Source: an uncultured Rikenellaceae bacterium
Lineage (GTDB): Bacteria > Bacteroidota > Bacteroidia > Bacteroidales > VadinHA17
NCBI GenBank assembly: GCA_963802145.1
Contig: CAWDHN010000006.1
Span: 7,434 to 71,433, forward strand
Direction of reading: 5' to 3'
DNA: 64,000 nt
Of the stretch, positions 11,961 to 62,228 are shown piece by piece (position 1 is the first letter of the stretch; the number at the start of each line of letters is the position of its first letter). The translations under genes and the position numbers were made by a program. The notes below the pieces were generated by a model that was given only the letters and a program-made list of their open reading frames with translations, was not told the origin of the DNA and did no database searches.

Positions 11961-12033
11961 CACGGGAGGAGAGACTCGAACTCCCGACACCTGGTTTTGG
12001 AGACCAGTGCTCTACCAACTGAGCTACACCCGT
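11961..12033 (-). tRNA. tRNA-Trp (anticodon CCA)
   Basis: A hand-folded cloverleaf on the minus strand has the anticodon loop CTCCAAA and the T-loop TTCGAGT. One T:T mismatch sits at acceptor pair 6:67. CCA is not encoded. Confidence 0.85.
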
Positions 12034-12100
12034 GTACATTCTGAAGGTATCCGTGCGCCCTCCGGCGAACGGATACCATATATATATATTTAATAAGGTC

Positions 12101-13288
12101 TTATTCGACAATATCGATGACCTGTCCGGCACCAACAGTACGTCCACCTTCGCGGATAGCGAACTGGAGACCTTTATTGATAGCCACCGGATAGATGAGC
12201 TCAACGGTTATGGTCACGTTGTCACCCGGCATCACCATCTCTGTTCCCTCGGGGAGAGCGATCTCACCGGTTATGTCAAGGGTACGGAGATAGAACTGGG
12301 GACGGTAATGATTGTGGAACGGGGTATGACGGCCACCTTCCTCTTTCTTAAGCACGTAGACCTCAGCCTTGAACTTGGTATGGGGTGTGATTGAACCCGG
12401 CTTGGCAAGTACATGACCTCTCTTGATCTCTTTCTTGTCAACACCGCGGAGGAGCAGACCCACGTTGTCACCGGCTTCACCCTGATCGAGTATCTTGCGG
12501 AACATCTCAACGCCGGTACATACTGACTTGCGTTTTTCTGCGCCGAGACCCACTATCTCAAGTTCGTCACCTGTGTGAACCATACCTGTTTCAATACGTC
12601 CCGTTGCAACGGTACCACGACCGGTGATCGAGAAGACGTCTTCAACCGGCATGAGGAACGGTTTTTCGTTCTCACGCGGAGGAATGGGTATGAATGAGTC
12701 AACTGCATCCATCAGTTCCATGACCTTATCTTCCCACTTGGGCTCATGGTTCATGGCGCCGAGGGCCGATCCGCGGATAACGGGAGCACCGTCACCATCG
12801 TACTTGTAGAATGTAAGAAGGTCGCGTATCTCCATCTCAACGAGGTCAATAAGCTCCTCATCGTCAACCAGGTCAACCTTGTTCAGGAAGACTACGATCT
12901 TAGGCACGTTCACCTGACGTGCGAGCAGGATATGTTCGCGTGTCTGGGGCATCGGGCCGTCAGTGGCGGCAACAACGATGATGGCGCCGTCCATCTGGGC
13001 AGCACCTGTAACCATGTTCTTGACATAGTCAGCGTGACCCGGACAGTCAACGTGCGCATAGTGACGGTTCGCCGTTGAATACTCGACGTGAGCCGTGTTG
13101 ATCGTAATACCCCTTTCCTTTTCTTCAGGAGCATTGTCGATTGAATCAAAGTCTCTTACTTCTGAGAGACCTTTCTTAGCGAGAACCATCGTAATAGCAG
13201 CTGTCAAGGTGGTCTTGCCGTGGTCGACGTGACCGATCGTACCGATATTTACGTGTGGCTTCGACCTGTCAAATTTTTCTTTTGCCAT
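12101..13288 (-). CDS. tuf: Elongation factor Tu
   Basis: 395 aa with [18 protein letters not shown] and NKVD G-motifs. Confidence 0.99.
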
Positions 13289-13331
13289 AACTAAAAGCTT
13301 ATTAAATTAAATTTACATCCAAAATCGTTTG

Positions 13332-13404
13332 AGCCGATGATGAGAGTTGAACTCATGACCCCTTCCTTACCAAGGAAGTGCTCTACCCCTGAGCTACATC
13401 GGCG
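13332..13404 (-). tRNA. tRNA-Thr (anticodon GGT)
   Basis: Cloverleaf with acceptor GCCGATG/CATCGGC, anticodon loop TTGGTAA and T-loop TTCAACT. Confidence 0.9.
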
Positions 13405-13409
13405 AATTG

Positions 13410-13482
13410 AGCGGGAGACGAAATTCGAATTCGCGACCCTTAGCTTGGAAGGCTAATGCTCTACCAACTGAGCTACTCCCGC
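13410..13482 (-). tRNA. tRNA-Gly (anticodon TCC)
   Basis: Cloverleaf with acceptor GCGGGAG/CTCCCGC, anticodon loop CTTCCAA and T-loop TTCGAAT. Confidence 0.9.
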
Positions 13483-13554
13483 TTATATCTTAAAACCGGC
13501 ACCCGGGTTACCCACCTGCAGGGAAAGAGTGCATTAATGCTGGCACTGTAAGTG

Positions 13555-13637
13555 TGGGGAGAGCAGGATTCGAACCTACGAAGTCTTCAGACAACAGATT
13601 TACAGTCTGCCCCAGTTGGCCACTTTGGTATCTCCCC
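13555..13637 (-). tRNA. tRNA-Tyr (anticodon GTA), long variable arm
   Basis: 83 nt with acceptor GGGGAGA/TCTCCCC, anticodon loop CTGTAAA (ACTGTAAAT in context) and T-loop TTCGAAT. Confidence 0.9.
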
Positions 13638-13685
13638 GTGTTTACAGTACATGCCTGGTTAGACATACATACTCATCACAAAATG

Positions 13686-13759
13686 AGCCGATGAAGGGAT
13701 TCGAACCCCCGACCTGCAGATTACAAATCAGCTGCTCTGGCCAACTGAGCTACATCGGC
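13686..13759 (-). tRNA. tRNA-Thr (anticodon TGT)
   Basis: Cloverleaf with acceptor GCCGATG/CATCGGC, anticodon loop TTTGTAA and T-loop TTCGAAT. Confidence 0.9.
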
Positions 13760-15369: not shown

Positions 15370-16482
15370 TCATTTCAAAACTTTTGATGAAATAAATTCA
15401 TAATCGTTGCCCGCAGCGCCCGGGGAGGGCCTTACATAGGGAGCCAGACGCTCAGCCTGCTGCGTGCTGATGATCTTGTTGCCGACCATCGACCCCAGCG
15501 TCAGAGGGGGATCAGTGAGTGTCCTGAACCTGCTTATCAGCCTTGCGGTTTCATAACCCACATAGGGATGGCGTGCAAGATCACCGAAGGAAACGCTGTC
15601 GAGGAGCAGGGGCGCGACGGAATCAAAGGTCAGTGTCAACATGGGGGTTATCAGGCTGACGACAGAGCTGTCGAGGCCATATACCTCCCTGAGCTGGTCT
15701 GTTGCGACAAAACCGCCAAGCAGTGCGCGGTACTTTATTATCCTCGCCGAGAGTACCGGTCCGATGCCCGGCAGGCTCTCCAGCTCCTCTGCACTGCACC
15801 TGTTAAGATCGATAAGCACCACCGGTGACTCCCCTGGCGCCCCCTCTGCAGGAGTCCCACGCCCGGATGACGGGGAATACGCTGACTGAGTCCCACGCCC
15901 GGATGACGGGGAATACGCTGCCGGAGCCCCATGCCCGGATGACGTGGAGTACCGGTCAGCAGGCCTTGCTTCAGGAAAGTACCTGTCAGCCCTCCCGGCT
16001 CCCTCTGCCGGAGTGGTCGCCGACCCGTACGATACCTTTCCGGCAGGATCCTCTGCAATAATAATATACGGACCAAGGCGTGCGGCTGTTGATGAGTCTA
16101 TCCCGTAAACCCTGGCCAGATCTTCAGGCCGCCGGAACCTTGCACCGCTGTTACGGTAGTTTATAAGCGTGCCTGCCTGCTTCCCGGTAAGCCCCAGCCG
16201 CAGCAGGTCATCGTACGGGACCGTGTTGGGATCAAATGTGAAGAGCTCCGGGCTGAGGCTCGCATCTGCACCGTTGCCTGCCGTACTGTCGGCCGGTGCC
16301 GCGGGAGGCCTGAGATCGTCAGGCACCCTGCCGGGCCTGAGAGCGGTAAATCTCACCATTATAAGTACTATGAGCAATACCGACAGCAGGTACGTACCCC
16401 GCCTCTCCCGGCGGTCAAAACCGAATAACCCGGCAGCGATCTTCCTGAATGGCTTCACATCTGATACAGCAAGAGACAGCAC
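15370..16482 (-). CDS. ComEA-like helix-hairpin-helix DNA-binding protein with a low-complexity repeat linker
   Basis: 370 aa with one N-terminal TM helix and HhH motifs (LTGKQAGTLINYR; LESLPGIGPVLSARIIKYR). The central linker carries the repeat YSPSSGRGT. Confidence 0.75.
   Translation of the reverse strand: MLSLAVSDVKPFRKIAAGLFGFDRRERRGTYLLSVLLIVLIMVRFTALRPGRVPDDLRPPAAPADSTAGNGADASLSPELFTFDPNTVPYDDLLRLGLTGKQAGTLINYRNSGARFRRPEDLARVYGIDSSTAARLGPYIIIAEDPAGKVSYGSATTPAEGAGRADRYFPEARPADRYSTSSGHGAPAAYSPSSGRGTQSAYSPSSGRGTPAEGAPGESPVVLIDLNRCSAEELESLPGIGPVLSARIIKYRALLGGFVATDQLREVYGLDSSVVSLITPMLTLTFDSVAPLLLDSVSFGDLARHPYVGYETARLISRFRTLTDPPLTLGSMVGNKIISTQQAERLAPYVRPSPGAAGNDYEFISSKVLK
15854..15961. repeat. 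36-bp tandem repeat, 3 units, inside the ComEA-like CDS
   Basis: Units at 15854-15889 and 15890-15925 are nearly identical (gtcccacgcccggatgacggggaatacgctg...). The third unit is diverged. They encode the repeats (A/Q)SAYSPSSGRGT. Confidence 0.9.
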
Positions 16483-16520
16483 AAGTTATGCAAAAAAGAA
16501 ATCCGTGTCAAGAGCTGAGA

Positions 16521-16631
16521 GATTTGCGAACTGCGATTTGCGATTTGCGAATGGGGTGTTTGGCTTGAGATTTGCGATTTGGGATCTGGGTATTTTTAAA
16601 ATCGGCAATCGAAAATCTTAAATCGCAAATC
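16521..16631 (-). repeat. Heptad-hairpin intergenic element, copy A (full element with an internal insertion)
   Basis: It starts at the base after the TAG stop (16632-34) of the OMP gene. Read on the minus strand: GATTTGCGATTTAAGATTTTCGATTGCCGATTTT...CATTCGCAAATCGCAAATCGCAGTTCGCAAATC. The 12-mers 16569-16580 and 16620-16631 are perfect reverse complements. Confidence 0.85.
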
Positions 16632-18998
16632 CTAAAACGGATATCCAATCCCGATGACCATCGTCAGATCATCCCTGCGGTCAAAGGTGCCGTTCAGGGG
16701 TATCCACTTGGACCCCTCCGTGGCCATGGGATCGCGGAGTTTCATTCCAAAATCGGCCCTCAGGAGCACGAATTTGATGTCGAACCTTAATCCCGCCCCT
16801 GCCCCTACAGCGATATCGTCAAGGAAGGTATCAAACCTGAACTGGCTGCCGGGTCTGTCCTCATCAGGCTTTACGGTCCATATATTGCCCACATCAACAA
16901 ACGTTGCACCCTCAAGTATCCAGAAGAGCTTGAACCGGTATTCGATGTTGGCCTCCAGTTTCATGTCGGAAGTCAGGTTGATGAATGTACTCTCCTCGGG
17001 CATGACATAGGAGCCGGGACCGAGGGTCCGTACCACCCACGCCCTGATATCATTGGAGCCGCCACCGAAATACTGCTCCTCGAAGGGCATGACCTTTGAG
17101 TTCCCGTAGGCCCATCCTACGCCGGCATACCACCTGTAGACGATACTGCTTGCATCATTGAACCTGTAATTATACGCAGCATCCACCTCTGCCTTGATGA
17201 ATTGCGCAAAGGGCTGCCCGAAGAGGTGGTATGTACCGTCTGAAGCCTTCTCCGCGTTACCCAGGGAGTAAAACATGTTGAGCAGGTTACCGGCGATATC
17301 AAGTCCGAGGCGTATGTTCCAGTAATCCTTTGACTTAGGGATCAACTGGTTGTTGAAGACATAATCGTACCGTCCGCCCACAATCCTGACGTCGCGGTAA
17401 GAAGAGGCAAGGTATGAGGTGGTATCAATCATCGCCTGGTATTCGGGATCAACATAATGCATCTTGACCACATTGAACGACAGTGGAATGATATTGAATT
17501 TCGTGCGTTTGTTGCCAATCCACGAGTAGCCGAGGGATATATTGGCGACTGAGCGCGCGTAGACCGGCACCATCTGGAAGTTATAACCCGCCTGAAATAC
17601 CGTTCGGGGGTCATGGTCGCGGATAAACTTCTCCTTTTCGGGGATTGGCAAAAGGAATTTTGGCAGCCTGAGATTGGCTTCAAAGCCGTACTGCTGTATA
17701 TTCTCGAATCCTGCAGACTCGTCGTTGACAGATTCATATGCCCCCTGCAGCTTCAGGCTGAAGACCTCTGCGCCTCCGAAAAGGCTTTTGTTCTGATATA
17801 TCAGGTTCAGTGCTCCGCCAAGGTTACCTCCCCAATTTGTTGTACCTTCGAGCTCAACGGTGAATGACTGCCTCATCAGGGGAGTGAGCTGAATGATGCA
17901 GTCGAGCATGCCCACATCTCTCCTTTCACCGGTAATGCCTTCTGCATCGATGTATGACACATTAACAAGCCTGTGGTTCTTGAGATCGGCCAGGTGAGTT
18001 TCCGTCTGCCTGGCATTTGTCTGGCTGAACCACGCCCCGGGTGCGACATAGAGTGCCTGGGTCAGCACCTCGGGCTTGACCAGCTGCCTGCCGGGCGGTG
18101 CGACGAAGTGGATCCCCTTGTAAAAAGTTGTGTCAAAGGTCATGGTGTATGCCTCCCCTGCCGTGAGTGACAGACTGGGATCAAAGTCAGGAAAGACATA
18201 TACATCCCTTACCCGGTACATCCGGTGGTTGCTGTATTCCGGCCGGCCCTTGCTGTCCAGGGTGCTCCTTAGGGTAACGACATACTGTACAATGACCTGG
18301 TGGTTCATCTGCGTACTGTCAATACGGAAATAGATATTCTCCGACGAGAAGGTGAAAAAACCCAGGTCCCTTATGAAGAGTTCCAGTCTCTGGCGCTCAC
18401 GCTGGAGAAGGTCTACATCGTATATCATCCCCCTCTTCACGGTGCAGTTCGACGTGTCCATCATCACGAAGGTGGAAAGGATAGTATCCTGAATATCATA
18501 CTGTACGCTGGCTATTGTATAGGGTCTGCCGGGGTCAACGGCATACTGTACCCTGGCCTCTCTCTTTTCGGTCTTCACCGTGTCTGCGACCCTGGCATTG
18601 AAAAACCCCTTTGACCAAAGGTAGCTCTCTATCTGTCCGGCTGATCTGTCTGCCGCTGCGGGATCAAATACCACCGGCTCCTCGCCGATCCTTCTCAGCC
18701 ACCCGTGGGGCCACTTGCTCTTCTCAATATTTGAAAGGTTATAGAGCCCGAGGTGGAACCTGGCGCCAAAGATCTTCTTGTTTGGCTGTTGCCGGAGATA
18801 AGGTTTTATCGCACTCTTGCTGACCGTTGATGGCAACGGCACGCTGCTCTCTTTCAGCACAATCACGTTGCTGTTCAGGAGCAAGTCGTCTCTTGGGACA
18901 TATTTTGTGGGGTTGCAGGAGGCTACCGTAAAAATAATGATCACCAGCAGAAACAGTTTGGGAGCAGTAATTTTTATATTTGTTCTCTGATGGATCAA
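16632..18998 (-). CDS. BamA/TamA (Omp85) family outer membrane protein, lipoprotein-type signal
   Basis: Long ORF with a beta-barrel-like C-terminus ending in F. The track start (GTG at 19067) overlaps the divergent trmH gene and a -7 box. An in-frame TTG at 18998 gives (M)IHQRTNIKITAPKLFLLVIIIFTVASC. The start position is an inference. Confidence 0.75.
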   Translation of the reverse strand: MIHQRTNIKITAPKLFLLVIIIFTVASCNPTKYVPRDDLLLNSNVIVLKESSVPLPSTVSKSAIKPYLRQQPNKKIFGARFHLGLYNLSNIEKSKWPHGWLRRIGEEPVVFDPAAADRSAGQIESYLWSKGFFNARVADTVKTEKREARVQYAVDPGRPYTIASVQYDIQDTILSTFVMMDTSNCTVKRGMIYDVDLLQRERQRLELFIRDLGFFTFSSENIYFRIDSTQMNHQVIVQYVVTLRSTLDSKGRPEYSNHRMYRVRDVYVFPDFDPSLSLTAGEAYTMTFDTTFYKGIHFVAPPGRQLVKPEVLTQALYVAPGAWFSQTNARQTETHLADLKNHRLVNVSYIDAEGITGERRDVGMLDCIIQLTPLMRQSFTVELEGTTNWGGNLGGALNLIYQNKSLFGGAEVFSLKLQGAYESVNDESAGFENIQQYGFEANLRLPKFLLPIPEKEKFIRDHDPRTVFQAGYNFQMVPVYARSVANISLGYSWIGNKRTKFNIIPLSFNVVKMHYVDPEYQAMIDTTSYLASSYRDVRIVGGRYDYVFNNQLIPKSKDYWNIRLGLDIAGNLLNMFYSLGNAEKASDGTYHLFGQPFAQFIKAEVDAAYNYRFNDASSIVYRWYAGVGWAYGNSKVMPFEEQYFGGGSNDIRAWVVRTLGPGSYVMPEESTFINLTSDMKLEANIEYRFKLFWILEGATFVDVGNIWTVKPDEDRPGSQFRFDTFLDDIAVGAGAGLRFDIKFVLLRADFGMKLRDPMATEGSKWIPLNGTFDRRDDLTMVIGIGYPF

Positions 18999-19021
18999 TT
19001 TACCGGTAACATAGGTGCAAG

Positions 19022-19029
19022 CAAATATA
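19022..19029 (-). promoter_or_regulatory. -7 box (TATATTTG) for the Omp85-family gene
   Basis: The minus strand reads TATATTTG, matching TAnnTTTG, 24 nt upstream of the proposed TTG start. Confidence 0.4.
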
Positions 19030-19070
19030 CCATTATAAACTCTATTTTCAATCACTGAACAATGCACAGG

Positions 19071-19844: not shown

Positions 19845-19852
19845 GAGGGACA

Positions 19853-19969
19853 GACTTCAGTCTTCAGTCTTCAGTCTTCAGTCCTCAGTCCTCAGTCTTG
19901 TCAATAGGCCTAACCATCTGTTTATTAATTCTTAATTCCTGCGACTGCCGACTGCTGACTGCCGACTGG
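19853..19969. repeat. Inverted (CAGTCNN)n heptamer arrays filling a convergent intergenic region (element F)
   Basis: The left array at 19853-19899 is (CAGTCTT)3(CAGTCCT)2CAGTCTT. The right array at 19939-19969 is CTGCGACTGCCGACTGCTGACTGCCGACTGG, the reverse complement of (CAGTCNN)4. Confidence 0.85.
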
Positions 19970-19970
19970 A

Positions 19971-23831: not shown

Positions 23832-26800
23832 ATGAAAAGAACAATCCTTGTATCAATCCTGATCACTGCACTGCTTTCGATGGCAGTACAGGATATGAAT
23901 GGCATAAATACATCCGATACCAGGATGATGTCACAGCCGGCTGTCAGCCCATCACATATTGCTTTCATCTATGCAGAGGACCTTTGGGTAATGAATGCCG
24001 ACGGCTCCTCGCCCAGGCGGCTGACCGTGGATGAAGGGATCGAGTCTGACCCCTGCTTCTCTCCTGACGGTAAGCTGATTGCCTTCAGCGCCCAGTACGA
24101 CGGCAACACAGACGTCTTCATCATTCCTGTCGAAGGCGGCTTGCCCGTGAGGCTCACCTGGCACCCGGGAAACGACATTGTCAGTGGTTTTACCCCGAAT
24201 GGCACGAGTGTCTTGTTTTCATCTCAGAGGTCATCATTCACCAGCAGGTACACCCAGCTCTATACCATTGGTATCAGCGGCGGTTACCCCGTGAAGCTGC
24301 AGATACCCAACGCCTATGATGCAACATACTCTCCTGACGGCAGAAGGATGGCCTATATCCCGATAGCCCCCAGGCACGGTCAGTGGAAGAACTACAGGGG
24401 CGGGACAGTGTCAACCATCTGGGTATATGAATTTGCAGACCGCTCCGTGGTGAAAATTCCCCAGCCTGATGGAGGGTGCAATGACACTGAGCCAATGTGG
24501 ATCGGAGATAAAATATATTTCGTGAGCGACAGGAACGGTGAGTTGAACCTCTTTTCCTATAATGTCAGCGGGGGTGAGATCCTTCAGCTTACGAAATATG
24601 ACGATTTCCCTGTGCTGAAGGCTTCAGCCTCCACCGGCAGGATAGTCTTTGAACAGGCCGGTTATCTGCATTCTCTTGAGATTGCCACCGGTGCTGCGGC
24701 TAAACTGAAGGTGGGCATTGCAGCTGACCTGCTTGAATTGAGGCCCCGCTACATTCAGGGCCCTAACTACATCCGCAGCGGCGACATCTCCCCAACCGGC
24801 AGTCGCGTTGTGTTTGATTACAGGGGAGAGATTATCACACTTCCTGCCGAGAAGGGAGATCCGAGAAACATAACCCTTACCCCAGGTGCACATGAAACAT
24901 ACCCCTCCTGGTCACCTGACGGGAAGACAATCGCCTTTTTCTCCGATGCCTCGGGGGAATACACCCTCCACCTCAAGCCGCAGGACGGTAAAGGAGAACC
25001 GAAGATATTCACACTTCCGGGAACAGGTTTTTATGCTTTCCCGAAATGGTCACCAGACAGCAAAAAGATCACCTTCGTTGACAACGGGAGGAACTTTTAC
25101 CTGCTTGACATTCAGTCAGGAATAATCAACAAGATCGCTTCTGACGACCTGTACGTCCCGGACCCCTTCAGGGCAATGTCCGGCGACTGGTCATCAGACT
25201 CCAGATGGATCGCTTACACCAGAGTAATGCCAACTTACTTCAGGGTTGTCTACCTCTATTCCGTTGATCAGCAGAAGTCATTCCCCGTCACCGACGGATT
25301 GAGCGACGCCTCTGAACCGGTCTTCGATCCCAATGGAGAATATATTTATTTCTTTGCATCCACTGATGCCGGGCCGGTATTGAACTGGTTTGACCTTTCA
25401 TCGGCAGATATGAGGAGTACAAGCTCAATCTACCTCGTTACACTGAGAAAAGAGATCACCTCCCCCTTTGCAAAGGATAGTGATGAGGAGAAAGGCACAG
25501 AGGAGAAGGCTGATGCTGAGGCGCCTGCCCCCAATGCCCCCGGTAAAACCACAAAAAAAGATGCAAAGAAGGATCCTGCACCTGAGGTTAAGGCGAATTT
25601 GATGAAGATCGATACCGAAGGACTGCAGGAAAGAATTGTCAATGTACCGGTCTCTGCCGGCAACTATACCAATCTTGGAGTTGCCGCAACGGGAGAGATA
25701 CTCTACATTGAAAGGCCTGACGGTCAGGGCGCGTCGAAGCTTCACAAATATTCTGTAAAAGACAGGAAGGATGAGGAGGTGATGGAGCTTGACAACTACG
25801 CTGTCAGCGCTGACCGTAAGAAAATGCTCTATAACAAGGGGATGACATTCGGGATATCCGCCGCCGGCAAGAAGCCGGAACCGGGAAAAGGGATCCTCAA
25901 CACCGGAGCCCTCTCTGTCAGGATCGATCCGGTTGCCGAGTGGCCTCAGATATTTGACGAGGCATGGAGGATCAACCGCGATTACTTCTATGACCCGGGG
26001 ATGCATGGTGCCGACTGGAAGGCCATGAGGGTGAAGTATTCTCAGTTCCTGCCTGACGTTGCATGCAGAAGTGACCTCAACCGGGTGATACAGTGGATGT
26101 GCAGCGAACTCTCCGTTGGCCACCACAGGGTTGGCGGCGGCGACAGGATGAGCACTCCCCCGAGAGTGGGAGGCGGATTGCTTGGCGCCGACTTCAGCGT
26201 GGAAAACAACCGGTACCGTTTGAAGAAGATCTACGGCGGACTGAACTGGAGCCCCGACCTGAGGTCACCGCTGACAGAACCGGGACTGAACGTGAAGGAG
26301 GGTGAGTATATCCTTGCCATCGACGGTAAGGATGTCACAGCTGACAGGAATATACACTCATTCCTTGAAAATACAGACGGCAAGCTAATCGAGCTGACAG
26401 TAGGCCCCAATCCCGTTTATGCAGGATCAAGGGTGATAAAGGTTGTGCCTGTGGGCAATGAAAGCAGCCTGCGTAACCGCGACTGGGTAGAGGGGAACCT
26501 CAGGAAGGTGACCGAAGCCACGGACGGCCGCGTGGCATATGTCTATGTCCCCAATACATCAAACCAGGGACATGAGTATTTCAAGAGATATTTCTTCCCG
26601 CAGGCAGACAGGCAGGCGATCATCATTGATGAGAGGTTCAACGGAGGCGGATTGATAGCCGATTATTATATTGACCTTCTGCAGCGGCCCCTGCAGTCGT
26701 ACTGGAACATGCGCTACGGCAAAGACCTCAAGACACCCAGCGCTTCAATCCAGGGACCCAAGGTAATGATCATCGATGAGACAGCCGGATCAGGAGGGGA

Positions 26801-27131
26801 TATGCTTCCCTGGATGTTCAGGAAATTCAAGGTCGGAACACTTGTTGGCAAACGGACCTGGGGAGGCCTGGTGGGAACACTCGGATTTCCCGAGCTTATG
26901 GATGGAGGCATGGTGACGGCACCCAACCTGGCTATCTGGACTGACGAAGGTTTTATAGTGGAAAACGTAGGGGTGGCCCCGGACATTGAGGTTGAACAAT
27001 GGCCTGCAGATGTCATTGAGGGAAGGGATCCTCAGCTTGAGAAAGCCATTGAGGTGGCGCTCAGGGAGCTTGAGAAGAACCCGCCAGCCGAGCCGGTGAG
27101 GCCGCCATATCCGGTGAGGGTGAGGAAATAA
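23832..27131 (+). CDS. Tricorn-protease-like S41 peptidase (beta-propellers, PDZ, S41 domain)
   Basis: 1099 aa with a signal peptide, TolB/WD40-like repeats (SPDGK..IAF repeated), and a C-terminal S41 region (IDERFNGGG, TAGSGGD). Confidence 0.85.
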   Translation: MKRTILVSILITALLSMAVQDMNGINTSDTRMMSQPAVSPSHIAFIYAEDLWVMNADGSSPRRLTVDEGIESDPCFSPDGKLIAFSAQYDGNTDVFIIPVEGGLPVRLTWHPGNDIVSGFTPNGTSVLFSSQRSSFTSRYTQLYTIGISGGYPVKLQIPNAYDATYSPDGRRMAYIPIAPRHGQWKNYRGGTVSTIWVYEFADRSVVKIPQPDGGCNDTEPMWIGDKIYFVSDRNGELNLFSYNVSGGEILQLTKYDDFPVLKASASTGRIVFEQAGYLHSLEIATGAAAKLKVGIAADLLELRPRYIQGPNYIRSGDISPTGSRVVFDYRGEIITLPAEKGDPRNITLTPGAHETYPSWSPDGKTIAFFSDASGEYTLHLKPQDGKGEPKIFTLPGTGFYAFPKWSPDSKKITFVDNGRNFYLLDIQSGIINKIASDDLYVPDPFRAMSGDWSSDSRWIAYTRVMPTYFRVVYLYSVDQQKSFPVTDGLSDASEPVFDPNGEYIYFFASTDAGPVLNWFDLSSADMRSTSSIYLVTLRKEITSPFAKDSDEEKGTEEKADAEAPAPNAPGKTTKKDAKKDPAPEVKANLMKIDTEGLQERIVNVPVSAGNYTNLGVAATGEILYIERPDGQGASKLHKYSVKDRKDEEVMELDNYAVSADRKKMLYNKGMTFGISAAGKKPEPGKGILNTGALSVRIDPVAEWPQIFDEAWRINRDYFYDPGMHGADWKAMRVKYSQFLPDVACRSDLNRVIQWMCSELSVGHHRVGGGDRMSTPPRVGGGLLGADFSVENNRYRLKKIYGGLNWSPDLRSPLTEPGLNVKEGEYILAIDGKDVTADRNIHSFLENTDGKLIELTVGPNPVYAGSRVIKVVPVGNESSLRNRDWVEGNLRKVTEATDGRVAYVYVPNTSNQGHEYFKRYFFPQADRQAIIIDERFNGGGLIADYYIDLLQRPLQSYWNMRYGKDLKTPSASIQGPKVMIIDETAGSGGDMLPWMFRKFKVGTLVGKRTWGGLVGTLGFPELMDGGMVTAPNLAIWTDEGFIVENVGVAPDIEVEQWPADVIEGRDPQLEKAIEVALRELEKNPPAEPVRPPYPVRVRK

Positions 27132-27215
27132 AATTGCGATTTAAGATTTTCGATTGTCGATTTAAAAAACATTCGCAAATCGCAAATCGCAAATCGCAAA
27201 TCGCAAATCGCAAAT
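27132..27215 (+). repeat. Heptad-hairpin intergenic element, copy B (archetype)
   Basis: It starts at the base after the TAA stop (27129-31): AATTGCGATTTAAGATTTTCGATTGTCGATTTAAAAAACATT followed by (CGCAAAT)x6 at 27174-27215. The left arm is four degenerate NNGATTT heptads complementary to the right array. Confidence 0.9.
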
Positions 27216-27244
27216 ACTAACTACTTTCGACTAACCCCTCAGAC

Positions 27245-32764: not shown

Positions 32765-32786
32765 CGGCAGCCTGCTGAATGCAAAA

Positions 32787-32820
32787 AAAACCGGTTCTGT
32801 TCCCAGAGCCGGTTTTTTTA
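32787..32820. terminator. Bidirectional intrinsic terminator
   Basis: A-run, then AACCGGTTCT-GTTCCC-AGAGCCGGTT (one G:U pair), then a T-run. It lies 23 nt after the stop of the BNR protein. Confidence 0.75.
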
Positions 32821-32821
32821 T

Positions 32822-32905
32822 AAGTCATAAAGTCTTGAAAATTTGCGATTTGCGATTTGCGATTTGCGATTAAATCGACAATCGAAAATCTTAAATCGAA
32901 AATTC
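32822..32905 (-). repeat. Heptad-hairpin intergenic element, copy C
   Basis: Read on the minus strand, beginning 12 nt after the msrBA stop: GAATTTTCGATTTAAGATTTTCGATTGTCGATTTAA followed by (TCGCAAA)x4. On the plus strand this is (ATTTGCG)x4 at 32841-32868. It ends in TAAGTCATAAAGTCT nonamer-like units. Confidence 0.88.
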
Positions 32906-32914
32906 TTCTTCTGC

Positions 32915-33850
32915 CTAGAAACGTTTGGTATACGCATGGCAATAAGGAACCTTCCCGTTCCGGAAATAGTAATCCTGGTGATATTCCTCTGCAGGATAGA
33001 ACTCAGAGGCCTTCGTAACCTCCGTGGCTACCTTCACTCCCTTTGCCTTCAGCACTCCCAGCAGCTTCTCCGCCACCTTCTTCTGGTCAGCGTTCTTGTA
33101 GAAGATCTCCGAGCGGTACTGGTCACCTATGTCAGGGCCCTGTCTCCCGATCTGTGTGGGGTCATGTATCTCCAGGAAGAGCATAAGCAGTTTTTCGTAC
33201 GAAGTCTTCTTCAGGTCATACGTCACCTTCACTGTCTCGGCATGTCCGGTCCTGCCTGTAACAACCTCGCGGTAAGAGGGATTTTTAACATGGCCGCCTG
33301 TGAAGCCTGAAACTACGGCCACAACACCCGGTTCTTTCTGAAGGAAGTACTCCACCCCCCAGAAGCATCCCCCGGCGAACAGTGCGGTACCATAGTTACC
33401 GGCAGGGAGAACCGCCGGCACAAAATCGAGGGAGACAGAGTTGACGCAGTGACGGGTATTCTTCGGGGTAAAACCCTCTCCTGTGAAGACATGACCCAGG
33501 TGTCCGTTGCATGATGCACACACTATCTCAGTACGCATGCCGTCAGCATCCCTTATACGTTTGACCGCACCGTCTATCTCATCGTCAAAGCTGGGCCAGC
33601 CGCAGCTGGCATCGAACTTGGCATCAGACTGGTACAGCGCATTGCCGCACTGCTTGCAGAGATAGGTACCCTTGCCATTGAACTTTTCATATATTCCAGT
33701 GAACGGATATTCCGTTGACTTACTGATAATTATCTTAGATTCTTCCGAAGTAAGATCATTGTATGCAGGTCTATCCTGCGATGTCATTTCCTTTTCCATT
33801 GAAAGCAAAGCTATGGTAAAAAATAATGTAGTATAAATGTGTGATTTCAT
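32915..33850 (-). CDS. msrAB: Bifunctional methionine sulfoxide reductase B/A, secreted
   Basis: Signal peptide, an MsrB part (CKQCGNALY...CGWPSF...CASCNGHLGHVF), then an MsrA part (FAGGCFWGVEYF). Confidence 0.92.
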   Translation of the reverse strand: MKSHIYTTLFFTIALLSMEKEMTSQDRPAYNDLTSEESKIIISKSTEYPFTGIYEKFNGKGTYLCKQCGNALYQSDAKFDASCGWPSFDDEIDGAVKRIRDADGMRTEIVCASCNGHLGHVFTGEGFTPKNTRHCVNSVSLDFVPAVLPAGNYGTALFAGGCFWGVEYFLQKEPGVVAVVSGFTGGHVKNPSYREVVTGRTGHAETVKVTYDLKKTSYEKLLMLFLEIHDPTQIGRQGPDIGDQYRSEIFYKNADQKKVAEKLLGVLKAKGVKVATEVTKASEFYPAEEYHQDYYFRNGKVPYCHAYTKRF

Positions 33851-44081: not shown

Positions 44082-46187
44082 ATGCATGATATTCTTGAAC
44101 TGAGCGAAATGCTTGTTCCCGAATTGAGGGAAATAGCGAAGCAGCTCAAAATTAAGAGGGCAGAGCTCCTCAAGAAACAGGATCTCATATATAAGATCCT
44201 TGATCAGCAGGCCATAGATGCTGCTGACACCCGTAAAACAGCCAGAATTGAAGGCCCGTCGCCCGACAGGCAGGCGGACCGCTCCGGTCAGCAGCAGAAA
44301 CAGCCTGACAGGCCCAGGCCACCGCAGCAACAGCAGAAACCCAGGGGGCCGAAGCCCCAGGGGCAGCAGCAGAGGCCGCCGCAACCGCAGGACCAGCGGC
44401 AGCAGAAGCCTCAGCAGCCACAGGGACCGAAGCCAAACCAGCCTCAGCAGCAATCGCAGCCGCAATTGCCTGGCCAGCCACAGCAGCAGAACCAGCAGAG
44501 GCCACCGCAACAGAACCAGCAGCAACAGAGCCAGCCGCAGCCCGGACAACCCCAGCAGGGACCGGCACAGGGTCAGCCTCAGAGACAGCCGCAGCAGCAG
44601 AGGCCGCAACAGCCGCAGAAGTGGAACCAAAACCGCAATAAACGGCCGCGCACCTACAATAATGACCAGCCGGATCAAAGAAGGCCTGATGGTGATCGTC
44701 AGCCCCAGCAGCAGCAATCAATCCCTGCTGCTCCCGGAAGAGAGACGCCTCAGACTCAGTCACAGTCACAGCAGCCGCAGCAGAACCAACAGCAGCAGAA
44801 CCAGCCGCAATATAGCCAGCCGCAGCAGAACCATCCGCAGCCTCAGTCGCAGCCCGACAGGCCCATGTTTGCTTCCGAACAGGTCAATGAGCATGATCAG
44901 GATCTGCTCCGATTCAGCGAACCTGAAAATGATACACACATCATTGAAGCGGCGGCAACATCCGATGCATCGGTTATACTTCCTCCTGCCGCTCCTGAAG
45001 CCGTACCCGGCCACCATGATATTCCGGAGCCTGTAAGGGAAGAGAGAAAGGAAAGAGCATACGATTTTGAAGGTATAGTAGCCAACACCGGTGTACTGGA
45101 GATAATGCCCGACGGTTACGGGTTCCTCCGTTCTCCGGATTACAACTACCTCAGCTCACCTGATGACATATACGTATCACAGTCGCAGATAAAGCTCTTC
45201 GGGCTTAAGACCGGAGACACCATCAGGGGTACTATCCGCCCGCCGCGTGAGGGAGAGAAGTATTTCCCGCTCATAAAGGTTGAAGAGATCAACGGCCGCA
45301 CTCCTGATTTCATCCGTGACAGGGTGCCGTTCGATTACCTCACTCCGCTTTTCCCAAATGAAAAATTCACGCTCTGCAAACCCGGTGAAGGAAACCTGTC
45401 AGTGCGTATCGTTGACATGTTCTGCCCGATAGGCAAGGGACAGCGCGGCCTGATAGTGGCACAGCCCAAGACAGGTAAGACGATCCTCCTTCAGGATATT
45501 GCCAACGCAATTGCCAAATTCCATCCGGAGGTCTACCTGATGATCCTCCTCATAGATGAACGTCCAGAAGAGGTGACTGAGATGGCTCGCAACGTCAACG
45601 CCGAGGTCATCGCCTCTACCTTTGACGAACCTGCCGAGAGGCACGTGCGTATCGCCACCATAGTTCAGGAAAAGGCCAAGAGGCTTGTCGAGTGCGGTCA
45701 TGACGTGGTCATACTCCTTGACTCCATCACCCGCCTTGCAAGAGCATTCAATACCATAGCTCCCGCATCAGGCAAGGTTCTCTCGGGCGGTGTTGATTCC
45801 AACGCCCTGCATAAACCGAAGAGGTTCTTCGGCGCAGCACGCAACATTGAGAACGGAGGCTCACTAACCATCATCGCCACCGCCCTCACAGACACCGGGT
45901 CAAAAATGGATGATGTCATCTTTGAAGAGTTCAAGGGTACGGGTAACATGGAGCTCCAGCTCGACCGCAAGCTGTCAAACAGGAGGATATTCCCTTCCAT
46001 AGACATACCTGCCTCAAGCACACGGCGCGAAGACCTGCTGCTCGACAGGAACATGCTGAGCAAGATATGGATACTCCGCAACTACCTCACCGACATGAAC
46101 TCGGTGGAAGCCATGGAATTCCTGCGTGACCGCATAACCCAGACACGCTCCAATGAGGAGTTCCTTATTTCGATGAACAGCGAATAA
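44082..46187 (+). CDS. rho: Transcription termination factor Rho with a Q/P-rich insertion of about 280 aa
   Basis: Rho_N ([18 protein letters not shown]), a low-complexity insert at aa 46-325, a CSD/OB domain ([14 protein letters not shown]), and an ATPase domain ([17 protein letters not shown]). Confidence 0.97.
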
Positions 46188-54128: not shown

Positions 54129-54282
54129 GAAGGCTGAAAGTCCTTAAAGTCTGTAAGGTCCATAAAGTCCGTAAAGTCCGTAAAGTCGAAAGTCTGAAAA
54201 TTGCAAATTTGAGCCTGCGATCTAGGAGCAGGATAAATCCCGGACACGCAGTGTCGGGACGCAAATCGAAAATCGCAAATCA
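54129..54282. repeat. Mosaic intergenic element D: nonamer array, two-hairpin core (reverse orientation), AAATCGC heptads
   Basis: It fills the whole trkA/tsaC convergent gap. Nonamers (RTAAAGTCY) run 54137-54196. The core is at 54203-54260. The sequence GCAAATCGAAAATCGCAAATCA at 54261-54282 runs into the tsaC stop codon. Confidence 0.85.
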
Positions 54283-54894: not shown

Positions 54895-54952
54895 CGCTTC
54901 TTTAAAGTGACGGCAAATATATAAACTTCTTGCGAGAGGGGGGTAAAAAAAA

Positions 54953-55049
54953 GGGTAAGCTACTCACATCGCACCGCTACAACCTTCTACCCTTGCTGTC
55001 TTCCAACCCTGGGGGAGTTCAAAGGGAGCTGGTCGTATGAGACTTACCC
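54953..55049 (-). ncRNA. ffs: Signal recognition particle RNA (4.5S type)
   Basis: The minus strand reads GGGTAAG...CCCCCAGGGTTGGAAGACAGCAAGGGTAGAAGG...CTTACCC. The terminal helix is closed by GGGTAAG/CTTACCC. The GGAAG.CAGCAAGG.AG segment matches the conserved SRP domain IV motif (E. coli GGAAGGAAGCAGCCAAGGCAG). A canonical promoter lies upstream. Confidence 0.8.
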
Positions 55050-55053
55050 CGCA

Positions 55054-55085
55054 CAAAAATACGAACTTTTAAGCCCTGCTCCAAA
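55054..55085 (-). promoter_or_regulatory. Bacteroidota-type promoter of SRP RNA
   Basis: The minus strand has TTTG (55085-82), a 20-nt spacer, then TATTTTTG (55061-54), ending 4 nt before the first G of the RNA helix. Confidence 0.6.
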
Positions 55086-56668: not shown

Positions 56669-56723
56669 GGACGTTACCCATCCCATTCGACAATCGCAAA
56701 TCGCAAATCGCAAATCGCAAATC
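56663..56723 (+). repeat. Mosaic intergenic element E (half element): GGCTGAGGAC module plus (CGCAAAT)x4
   Basis: GGCTGAGGACGTTACCCATCCC (56663-84, spanning the TGA stop of the GT2 gene), then ATTCGACAAT, then (CGCAAAT)x4 at 56695-56722. No complementary left arm is present. Confidence 0.8.
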
Positions 56724-56744
56724 TCCCTGCCCCTGGTCCCTTGC

Positions 56745-61814: not shown

Positions 61815-62208
61815 GGGGCTGACCTGGTTTTGACAGCAAGCCGCGGTGGTATGTAAGCATGCAGAGTAGGGTGACGCATCTCTTTAACTTGTGTCACAAA
61901 ACAACAACAGGCGAGAATAACTACGCTCTTGCTGCGTAACTGAACTAAGTAGGTTATGCTTAATCCCGGCACAAGGTGCCGGGACGAGACGTTTCCCGGG
62001 CGGTGATGCCCAGTACCAACCCGATCAGGAAGCGCACGCAATTCAGGGATAGCCTGATGGTCTCTCCGGCCTGACGGTGAAATTAAAGGAGATAAGGTGT
62101 GATTCGGCTGTCTGCCACCTGGTCACACCCGACAATCAAGGCAGGATAAGCATGTAGAAAGCATATGGTCGCCTTGCCTGGACGCGGGTTCGACTCCCGC
62201 CAGCTCCA
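61815..62208 (+). ncRNA. ssrA: Transfer-messenger RNA (tmRNA)
   Basis: 5' GGGGCTGAC pairs with 3' CAGCTCCA. The T-arm is GGGTTCGACTCCC. The tag reading frame at 61910-61939 (GGCGAGAATAACTACGCTCTTGCTGCGTAA) encodes GENNYALAA, the Bacteroidota-type tag. Confidence 0.93.
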
Positions 62209-62228
62209 CGATCAAGCAGAAAACAAGC

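Follow-up and report, generated by a model that had tools for sequence, protein, structure and literature searches.

A dispersed heptad palindrome with a duplicated right arm between an Omp85/BamA-like gene and a ComEA-like gene of a Rikenellaceae bacterium

The intergenic element that follows an Omp85/BamA-like gene, referred to here as copy A, is by its sequence a member of a dispersed, Rikenellaceae-type Bacteroidales family of intergenic imperfect palindromes. Its second right arm is a lineage-specific tandem duplication, as reconstructed from alignment, of ~32-34 nt that comprises loop sequence and the start of an arm. Copy A belongs, as an ordinary member, to a class of bacterial repeats that is known but poorly understood. 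The reading that we consider probable joins four points: membership in the palindrome family, a duplicated arm, a branched hairpin that engages both right arms, and a REP-like role in the 3′ UTR. The window referred to below is the whole 64-kb stretch of DNA that was analysed (64,000 nt).

The initial annotation had placed the start of the element at the base after the TAG of the Omp85-family gene, and had described two separate AAATCGC-type arrays after the left arm and two co-directional neighbours, an OMP gene and then a ComEA-like gene. The layout of the locus bears out each of these points, with the domains of the two products assigned by Pfam:

16632..19055, minus strand: Omp85/BamA-like gene, 807 aa as called in public assemblies, PF01103 plus POTRA
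16634-16632, minus strand: TAG stop codon of the Omp85/BamA-like gene, read from the sequence
16599..16631, minus strand: left arm of copy A, an imperfect heptad array of 33 nt, GATTTGCGATTTAAGATTTTCGATTGCCGATTT, from the first base after TAG (16631)
16625-16606, minus strand: the invariant 20-mer of the family, CGATTTAAGATTTTCGATTG, inside the left arm
16583..16598, minus strand: loop 1, 16 nt, UAAAAAUACCCAGAUC, between the left arm and the proximal arm
16567..16582, minus strand: proximal short right arm, CCAAATCGCAAATCTC, the extra arm
16554..16566, minus strand: spacer of 13 nt separating both right arms
16519..16553, minus strand: distal, canonical right arm, CATTCGCAAATCGCAAATCGCAGTTCGCAAATCTC, in which CATTCGCAAATCGCAAATCGCAGTTCGCAAATC corresponds to 16553-16521
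16482..16511, minus strand: promoter-like motif, TTGACA (16511-16506), 17-nt spacer, TAACTT(G) (16488-16482)
15370..16458, minus strand: ComEA-like (HHH_3) gene, Pfam PF12836

The 807-aa protein P0001 is 100% identical to the Omp85/BamA-like product, and its homologues are named BamA or TamA by their sources. The ComEA-like gene has a likely GTG start at 16458-16456 (MKPFRKI..., with a hydrophobic N-terminal helix).

A search for the 12-mer AAATCGCAAATC located it at 16620-16631 on the plus strand and at 16569-16580 and 16535-16546 on the minus strand. This confirmed the perfect reverse complementarity claimed earlier for 16620-16631 and 16569-16580, and also the proposal that the distal array can pair with the same left arm, through the identical 12-mer at 16535-16546. 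The 12 nt at the 5′ end of the left arm thus have a perfect complement in each right arm. When up to one mismatch is allowed, the 64-kb window contains 18 occurrences of the 12-mer, against 0.42 expected, and none of 100 shuffles reaches 18. Period-7 arrays were detected by TRF at 16524-16552, 16598-16631, 27173-27215, 32841-32871 and 56692-56723, in agreement with a periodicity scan, and tandem arrays of at least three 7-nt units are present.

The exact 20-mer CGATTTAAGATTTTCGATTG is found three times in the window, in copies A, B and C. When 185,579 species genomes were scanned with this 20-mer, 24 loci were returned, 11 of which are Rikenellaceae/Bacteroidales MAGs that display the same architecture, a left arm (G)AATTTTCGATTTAAGATTTTCGATTGTCGATTTAATC followed by (CGCAAAT)n. 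The 20-mer is also carried by L032, a locus fetched separately from the genome scan. The window and 12 related loci together gave 16 strong left-arm copies in an nhmmer search, and the architecture is uniform: the left arm, with consensus (G)AATTTkCGATTTAAGATTTTCGATTGyCGATTT, is interrupted and nearly invariant, and the right arm, (AAATCGC)n, is variable. The copies form long imperfect hairpins of -20.8 to -24.3 kcal/mol (z -2.8 to -4.6). Multi-arm or multi-module variants account for 5 of 17 copies, i.e., L006, L010, L019, L021 and window copy A. Further repeat features of the window, with the terminator that accompanies one of them, are the following:

27132..27216, plus strand: copy B, beginning directly after the TAA that ends a Tricorn/S41 peptidase gene
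32841..32910, minus strand: copy C, almost loopless, starting 8 nt after the TAG of the minus-strand gene 32915-33850
32786-32819: canonical bidirectional terminator after copy C on the minus strand, -18.9 and -22.2 kcal/mol, z = -5 and -8
56684..56728, plus strand: right-arm-type array only, CATTCGACAATCGC(AAATCGC)3AAATCTC, between convergent genes
19845..19970, strand not assigned: palindrome of a second heptad family, (CAGTCTT)7 ... (GACTGCN)4

The second palindrome fills the convergent junction between a SpoU methylase gene and an FAD-dependent gene. The right arm of copy B has the form (AAATCGC)6 in the window; 8 further assemblies of this species have four units there, with flanks that are otherwise identical. 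Because of this difference the right arm is considered slippage-prone, and arm duplications appear to be a kind of variant that arises repeatedly in the family. No hits to the 20-mer were obtained in the viral contigs scanned, which leaves a phage origin unsupported. The plasmid scan gave just weak partial matches, to Nostoc heptad arrays and to a heptad palindrome of a Chlorohelix plasmid, and literature string searches for the heptad sequences found no published description.

Copies of the family are located at the 3′ ends of genes, and none is situated between divergent genes. The distance from the same-strand stop codon to the element is 0 nt for copies A and B and 8 nt for copy C, and 12 of the 17 family copies lie in sense orientation at most 87 nt from such a stop codon. 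The orientation bias, 12 of 15, is of modest significance (binomial p = 0.035, or 0.09 with orthologous copies collapsed). In the window 4 of 8 convergent junctions hold a repeat array, against 2 of 38 tandem and 0 of 9 divergent ones, and the convergent class differs from the rest with a Fisher p = 0.0027; it should be noted that these counts come from approximate ORF calls and a small sample. Copy C lies between a stop codon and the canonical terminator at 32786-32819; its location is thus a 3′ UTR, and the terminator is a separate structure. Copy B, in a tandem junction of 113 nt, is separated from the next ATG by only 28 nt; it must therefore be read through or contain a promoter, and efficient termination is disfavoured there.

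Omp85 to HHH_3 junctions of relatives were recovered by way of their BamA homologues. The region between the two genes differs among them as follows, with the identity of the BamA homologue given in each case:

L028-L030 (same species), BamA 100%: junction identical to that of the window
L032, BamA 85%: element at the same base after TAG, one right arm, 32-nt gap opposite the proximal arm
L042, BamA 83%: no element, 30-nt spacer
L033 (Rikenella sp. MAG), BamA 78%: short, degenerate version
L043 and L044, BamA 70%: a different heptad palindrome, (AGTCGGC)n / (GACTGnn)n
L045, BamA 68%: terminator-like GC hairpin with T-run

The closest orthologue that bears the element, L032, does not have the second arm, and its single arm is orthologous to the distal arm of copy A, which also resembles the arms of copy B and of the 56684 array. 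In copy A each right arm and the sequence 5′ of it make up one unit of a direct repeat, at a spacing of 34 nt and with an identity of 80%. The duplicated unit takes in the proximal arm, the greater part of loop 1 and some of the spacer. It is this direct repeat, and the 32-nt gap against the single-armed L032, that lead us to read the second arm as a tandem duplication. The alignment of window copy A with L032, counted by eye, shows ~2 differences in the 33 nt of the left arm and ~6-7 in the 35 nt of the right arm. The palindrome found in L043 and L044 belongs to the family represented in the window at 19845..19970. The junction of L042 folds only into an insignificant small hairpin (z = -0.05); a strong hairpin is thus dispensable at the Omp85/ComEA junction.

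The stretch from the stop codon to the promoter-like motif is not conserved among the orthologous junctions. The motif itself, in the form CTTGAC ... TAaCTTg / TAyCTTTC, is kept in 6 of 6 of them (window, L032, L033, L042, L043 and L045). The order of sequences 3′ of the variable slot is CTTGAC, ~19 nt, TAaCTTg or TAyCTTTC, TCTTGCTGTAT, and GTG (ATG in L045). In the window the leader TCTTGCTGTAT is at 16474-16464, preceding the GTG of the ComEA-like gene, and GTGAAG and the leader are kept in orthologues. The motif resembles the Bacteroidetes -33/-7 pattern. A scan of the minus strand of 16300-16800 for the sigma-70 consensus flagged no promoter, at the promoter-like motif or elsewhere. We infer that the conserved block 3′ of the element is a Bacteroidetes-type promoter with the leader of the ComEA-like gene. 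The position of this conserved motif, immediately 3′ of the element, makes it probable that the ComEA-like gene is served by a promoter of its own.

Structure modeling of copy A in the RNA form gives -24.3 kcal/mol with z = -4.2, and equal stability was reached by 0 of 200 shuffled sequences. The minimum free energy (MFE) structure of the minus-strand RNA is one branched hairpin that engages both right arms simultaneously, with the outer 12 bp of the left arm paired to the distal array and the inner half (AGAUUU.CGAUU) paired to the proximal array. A search of the whole 64-kb window with Rfam 15 at the gathering threshold revealed no family, and at E<=10 the region 16400-16720 gave only sub-threshold chance hits to miRNA models.

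The function proposed for copy A would then be as follows. In the sense orientation of the BamA-like gene, the RNA of the element would form one long branched hairpin that begins 2-3 nt past the stop codon. REPs shield the upstream mRNA from 3′ exonucleases, as in the malE-malF example, and in E. coli those within ~15 nt of a stop codon can influence translation termination. Our proposal is that copy A would act as a REP-like hairpin in the 3′ UTR and may mark or protect the 3′ end of the BamA-like transcript. Differential mRNA stability, which the initial annotation had also raised, is plausible for the hairpin as it is for REP elements. The hairpin starts within the footprint of the ribosome at the stop codon, thus contact with terminating ribosomes is possible, and termination of translation may be affected, as reported for E. 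coli REPs. Transcription of the ComEA-like gene would start from a separate promoter immediately downstream of the element, and the extra arm would most likely lengthen the stem and have no separate function. In favor of a role at the 3′ end, the same Omp85/ComEA slot is filled in other lineages by the palindrome of L043 and L044 or by the terminator-like hairpin and T-run of L045. The L042 junction, without the element at a BamA identity of 83%, speaks against the 3′-UTR-hairpin reading.

The main rival explanation is that the element is functionless DNA, a slippage-driven or selfish repeat in which heptameric arrays expand in permissive 3′ intergenic DNA and are tolerated away from promoters. 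Presence, absence and arm number are polymorphic among close relatives, as expected of such DNA, and several unrelated heptad and nonamer families are found at similar sites. The absence from divergent junctions is likewise shared with the heptameric repeats of Xanthomonas and Nostoc (PMC4692102), and heptamers have been reported as the most abundant class of tandem repeats and ascribed to polymerase slippage (PMC4679880). However the interrupted left arm is near-identical in at least 16 copies from several species, which is unexpected for neutral DNA, and between window copy A and L032 the left arm has changed far less than the right arm. Hairpin-type elements also recur at the Omp85/ComEA junction in different lineages. 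The invariant left arm thus argues against pure neutrality, and the functionless reading, while a possible one, is rather unlikely. The near-invariance of the left arm across species goes beyond what a generic hairpin role would ask for and hints at sequence-specific recognition or at concerted evolution.

It is improbable that the element itself terminates the BamA-like gene, as a Rho-dependent or a non-canonical hairpin terminator. Termination would suit a slot that holds a terminator-like hairpin with a T-run in L045, the position upstream of the conserved promoter-like motif, and the enrichment at convergent junctions; it does not suit the absence of a U-tract, the separate canonical terminator that follows copy C, or copy B with the short distance to the next start codon in its tandem junction. 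The element is AU-rich and lacks a U-tract, thus it is not a classical terminator. An intrinsic terminator was rejected, since the GC-rich stem with U-tract that defines one is replaced here by an AU-rich stem and no site was found on the minus strand of 16300-16800. Canonical terminators do exist in this genome, e.g., at 32786-32819, and a terminator-like site is present at the orthologous position in L045.

The initial annotation had proposed that the two right arms allow mutually exclusive hairpins, i.e., a two-state RNA switch in which the left arm alternates between the proximal and distal arrays and tunes read-through or stability from the BamA-like to the ComEA-like gene. The alternative pairing stands, since the outer 12-mer complements both arrays and the two hold the identical perfect complement. 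The exclusivity, the conservation and the read-out do not stand, in view of the folding, the orthologues and the terminator scan. Computation of MFE and suboptimal structures gave a single dominant branched fold, not two comparable states, and in 2000 sampled structures both arms are engaged in 74%, the distal arm only in 24% and the proximal arm only in 2.5%. The ensemble free energy, -30.9 kcal/mol without constraints, rises to -29.0 when the proximal arm is blocked and to -22.7 when the distal arm is blocked. In the left arm, the outer 12-mer is ~97% paired with the distal arm and ~2% with the proximal arm; the inner half splits between the two (59% proximal vs 39% distal), a point in favor of the switch. 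Since the fold engages both arms at once, copy A is not a two-state switch. It should be noted that the left-proximal hairpin (-18.6 kcal/mol) is the MFE structure of the nascent transcript as long as the distal array has not been made. The barrier from this hairpin to the final fold is ~13.8 kcal/mol, a heuristic estimate from findpath, thus a transient kinetic trap is conceivable. However the proximal-only hairpin is ~8 kcal/mol worse and is rarely sampled, and therefore would be a co-transcriptional intermediate at most.

A read-out for such a switch is equally hard to find. The terminator scan of the minus strand of 16300-16800 found no U-tract after either alternative hairpin, thus an arm swap would neither create nor abolish a terminator. 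There is no leader peptide or known aptamer, Rfam being empty except for the chance miRNA-model hits, and the ComEA-like gene has its own conserved promoter-like motif downstream of the element. The two-arm layout is not conserved in the orthologous intergenic regions, with one arm in L032 and the entire element absent from L042. On these grounds a switch at this junction is very improbable. If real, it would be a new kind of intergenic regulator; the evidence points instead to a duplication variant of a repeat.

An element acting at the DNA level, as a recombination substrate (a 10.5-kb inversion between copies A and B) or as a site for a DNA-binding protein or transposase, cf. REP/RAYT, would fit the conserved left-arm sequence. 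It would also fit two contigs, L031, which breaks within the left arm, and L001 (ERZ781241), which joins the 3′ end of the copy B peptidase gene and left arm to the copy A loop, right arms and ComEA-like gene, with the crossover inside 23 nt common to both copies. However L001 has a coverage of 2.7x and a second, non-colinear breakpoint within the peptidase gene. The reciprocal junction is absent in 8 listed contigs that contain the gene downstream of copy B, all of them from other samples, which leaves room for a variant specific to the sample of L001, and contigs of the same study from two other samples, with a 99.7% match to the ComEA-like allele of L001, keep the standard order. Thus the inversion was rejected and L001 is most likely a chimeric assembly. 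In a comparison with MITEs, the arms of copy A are inverted repeats, and no target-site duplication is visible against the L042 empty site, the one such site examined, where ~30 nt are replaced. A DNA-level role is highly unlikely on this evidence.

The core of the left arm is also found outside of the Bacteroidales. Among the loci recovered, 24 genome loci and 17 metagenome loci, 41 in total, contain an exact match to its reverse complement, CAATCGAAAATCTTAAATCG. Outside of the Bacteroidales it is found in genomes of 57-70% GC, often within the longer word AAATCG[T/A]CAATCGAAAATCTTAAATCG. The hosts include members of the Chloroflexota, Acidobacteriota, Verrucomicrobiota, Kiritimatiellota and Gammaproteobacteria, with Terriglobales, Opitutaceae, Kiritimatiellales and Cellvibrionaceae, among others. 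At least 9 loci have an array whose end is 1-10 nt upstream of the ATG of a long ORF, with no intervening SD, and the genes are unrelated. Judged from N-terminal sequence alone, the downstream ORFs are thrS-like in three Opitutaceae and ABC ATPase-like in a Chloroflexota MAG, and the Kiritimatiellales array precedes a gene that resembles U32 peptidase. Some of the cross-phylum arrays are hairpins with a GATTnnn left arm, and the hairpin array of the Chlorohelix plasmid is situated between a four-helix-bundle gene and a Swt1-HEPN gene. The enrichment was judged against a rough expectation of ~1 chance hit and the improbability of an AT-rich 20-mer at 57-70% GC. The cross-phylum occurrence of CAATCGAAAATCTTAAATCG may be treated as a lead. 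That arrays with an AATC/GATT core are a functional RNA motif across phyla, and not slippage debris, seems distinctly unlikely. If true, a conserved RNA-binding factor could recognise the word, or it could be used as an SD-independent signal for translation or stability, and the hairpin form of the Rikenellaceae would mask or present such a signal.

The family described here extends the intergenic heptameric repeats of Xanthomonas and cyanobacteria to the Bacteroidales, in the form of a palindrome with an invariant arm. The natural one-arm, two-arm and empty alleles at one junction offer a handy system for the effects of repeats on mRNA 3′ ends. In addition, these repeats break or mis-join short-read assemblies, as in L031 and L001, which is relevant to the quality of MAGs.

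Among known systems the closest match is with the intergenic heptameric SSRs, GGGAATC in Xanthomonas and GGGGA(C/T)T in Nostoc (Rehm et al. 2015, PMC4692102). These are strongly intergenic, near the ends of ORFs and under-represented between divergent ORFs; they vary in length and sequence in close relatives, some pairs are inverted repeats, and their function is unknown (PMC4692102). Tandem 7-nt units and an AATC/GATT core are common to both, and the pattern is matched in the window by the empty divergent junctions (0 of 9) and the 6 vs 4 units of copy B. Intergenic bias and variation in unit number, the latter in copy B and in the right arms of window copy A and L032, are both seen in the family. 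However the unit AAATCGC is not rich in G and lacks the potential for G-quadruplexes, the arrays form a defined palindrome with an invariant interrupted left arm, and the phylum is Bacteroidota. The unit AAATCGC / GATTTnn matches none of the named heptamers (GGGAATC, GGGGAYT, TAACTGA, STRR1-3), with the AATC core alone common to it and to GGGAATC and GGGGATT.

The cyanobacterial STRRs are intergenic 7-bp tandem repeats that can form hairpins between co-transcribed genes, e.g., hupS-hupL, and a role in transcript stability has been proposed (PMC2670836). Their heptamer sequences and phylum are different, and the STRR passage of that source mentions no conserved interrupted arm. The TAACTGA direct repeats are scattered across phyla, in Beggiatoaceae, cyanobacteria and a few Bacteroidetes (MacGregor 2015, PMC4679880); they are intergenic, and horizontal gene transfer or a post-transcriptional role has been proposed for them (PMC4679880). 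The AATC-core arrays directly before start codons in other phyla parallel the TAACTGA position. Copy A differs, in that its repeats are inverted and immediately downstream of a stop codon, whereas those of TAACTGA are direct and immediately upstream of start codons.

With attenuators copy A shares one segment, the left-arm 12-mer, that has two possible complementary partners. The partners are non-exclusive in copy A, however, with no U-tract and no sensor, and the layout is not conserved in orthologues. The comparable exclusive states, the conservation among orthologues and the known sensor or RNA family of attenuators and riboswitches are all absent.

The likeness to the REP/BIME elements of enterobacteria and pseudomonads is in kind and in location. 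Both are dispersed, extragenic, imperfect palindromes, in 3′ UTRs or at co-directional or convergent junctions, and both can lie between the stop codon and the real terminator. The family described here is such a dispersed extragenic palindrome at the 3′ ends of genes, with 3 full copies in 64 kb, at 0-8 nt after the stop codon. It differs from REP/BIME in being AU-rich and longer (60-113 nt), in the absence of the conserved GTAG/CTAC head of the REP type, and in its construction from heptad tandem repeats with a variable number of units.

The right arm of copy B (window 27173-27216), the heptad element directly 3′ of the Tricorn/S41 peptidase gene, consists of six AAATCGC units here, as opposed to four in eight other same-species assemblies. 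The flanks are identical between the window and these eight assemblies, and the difference is a heptad copy-number polymorphism.

A metagenome contig, L001 (ERZ781241 NODE_1130, coverage 2.7x), was compared over its positions 1-1700 with window 26043-27156 and 16440-16605. In this contig the 3′ end of the peptidase-S41 gene and the copy B left arm are fused to the loop and right arms of copy A, i.e., the element 3′ of the Omp85/BamA-like gene, followed by the ComEA-like gene. L001 is probably a chimeric assembly, joined at 23 nt common to copies A and B. The same arrangement would result if the two copies, which are inverted relative to each other, had recombined to invert 10.5 kb, but colinearity in L001 breaks a second time, at window 26043, and a reciprocal junction was not found in contigs from other samples. 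Another contig, L031, terminates within the left arm.

Repeat arrays are also present in convergent junctions of the window:

19845-19970, second heptad palindrome family, (CAGTCTT)7 ... (GACTGCn)4, between the SpoU methylase and FAD-dependent genes
54129-54282, junction wholly taken up by the next three elements
54130-54199, nonamer array (AAAGTCCGT)n, in junction 54129-54282
within 54129-54282, small GC hairpin (CCCGGACACGCAGTGTCGGG)
within 54129-54282, short AAATCGn array, running up to the minus-strand gene's stop codon
56684-56728, right-arm-type array (CATTCGACAATCGC(AAATCGC)3AAATCTC), in a 76-nt junction

The palindrome at 19845-19970 spans its entire junction, touching both stop codons, with a folding energy of -35 to -40 kcal/mol, and the same family is found in the Omp85/ComEA junction of relatives (L043/L044). 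In many loci from Rikenellaceae (L009, L011, L012, L015, L021, L022), the heptad element likewise has nonamer GACTTTnnn arrays at its flanks. No recognisable left arm is found at the array 56684-56728.

Repeats are found inside genes as well:

15851-15952, 36-nt (12-aa) tandem coding repeat, within the ComEA-like gene
44477-44846, overlapping CAG/CAGCAGAAC-type repeats with periods of 3, 12, 15, 21 and 24, within ORF 44082-46187 (+)

Across its repeat-bearing part the ComEA-like gene has ~159 nt less in other same-species assemblies, and the protein as called is 370 aa in the window versus 317 aa in those assemblies. The repeats of ORF 44082-46187 probably encode a Q/N-rich low-complexity region.

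Rfam identifies the following RNAs, which fit an origin in Bacteroidales (Rikenellaceae-like):

11961-13759, five-tRNA cluster, adjoining the EF-Tu gene
54949-55056, Bacteroidales small SRP RNA
61815-62211, tmRNA

The GC content falls to 0.43 over the window's final 4 kb.

Taken as its reverse complement, CAATCGAAAATCTTAAATCG, the core of the left arm has exact matches in many phyla, some in genomes of 57-70% GC (loci L004, L008, L013, L016, L017, L020, L027, L048, L057, L058; further loci L005, L007, L014, L018, L024, L026, L046, L050, L054). In at least nine loci with CAATCGAAAATCTTAAATCG, a long ORF has its ATG 1-10 nt after the end of an (nAATCnn)n array, and no Shine-Dalgarno sequence lies between the two. 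Judged from N-terminal sequence alone, the gene behind the array is, for example, putatively thrS-like in three Opitutaceae and ABC ATPase-like in a Chloroflexota MAG. The remaining loci include hairpins whose left arm is GATTnnn.
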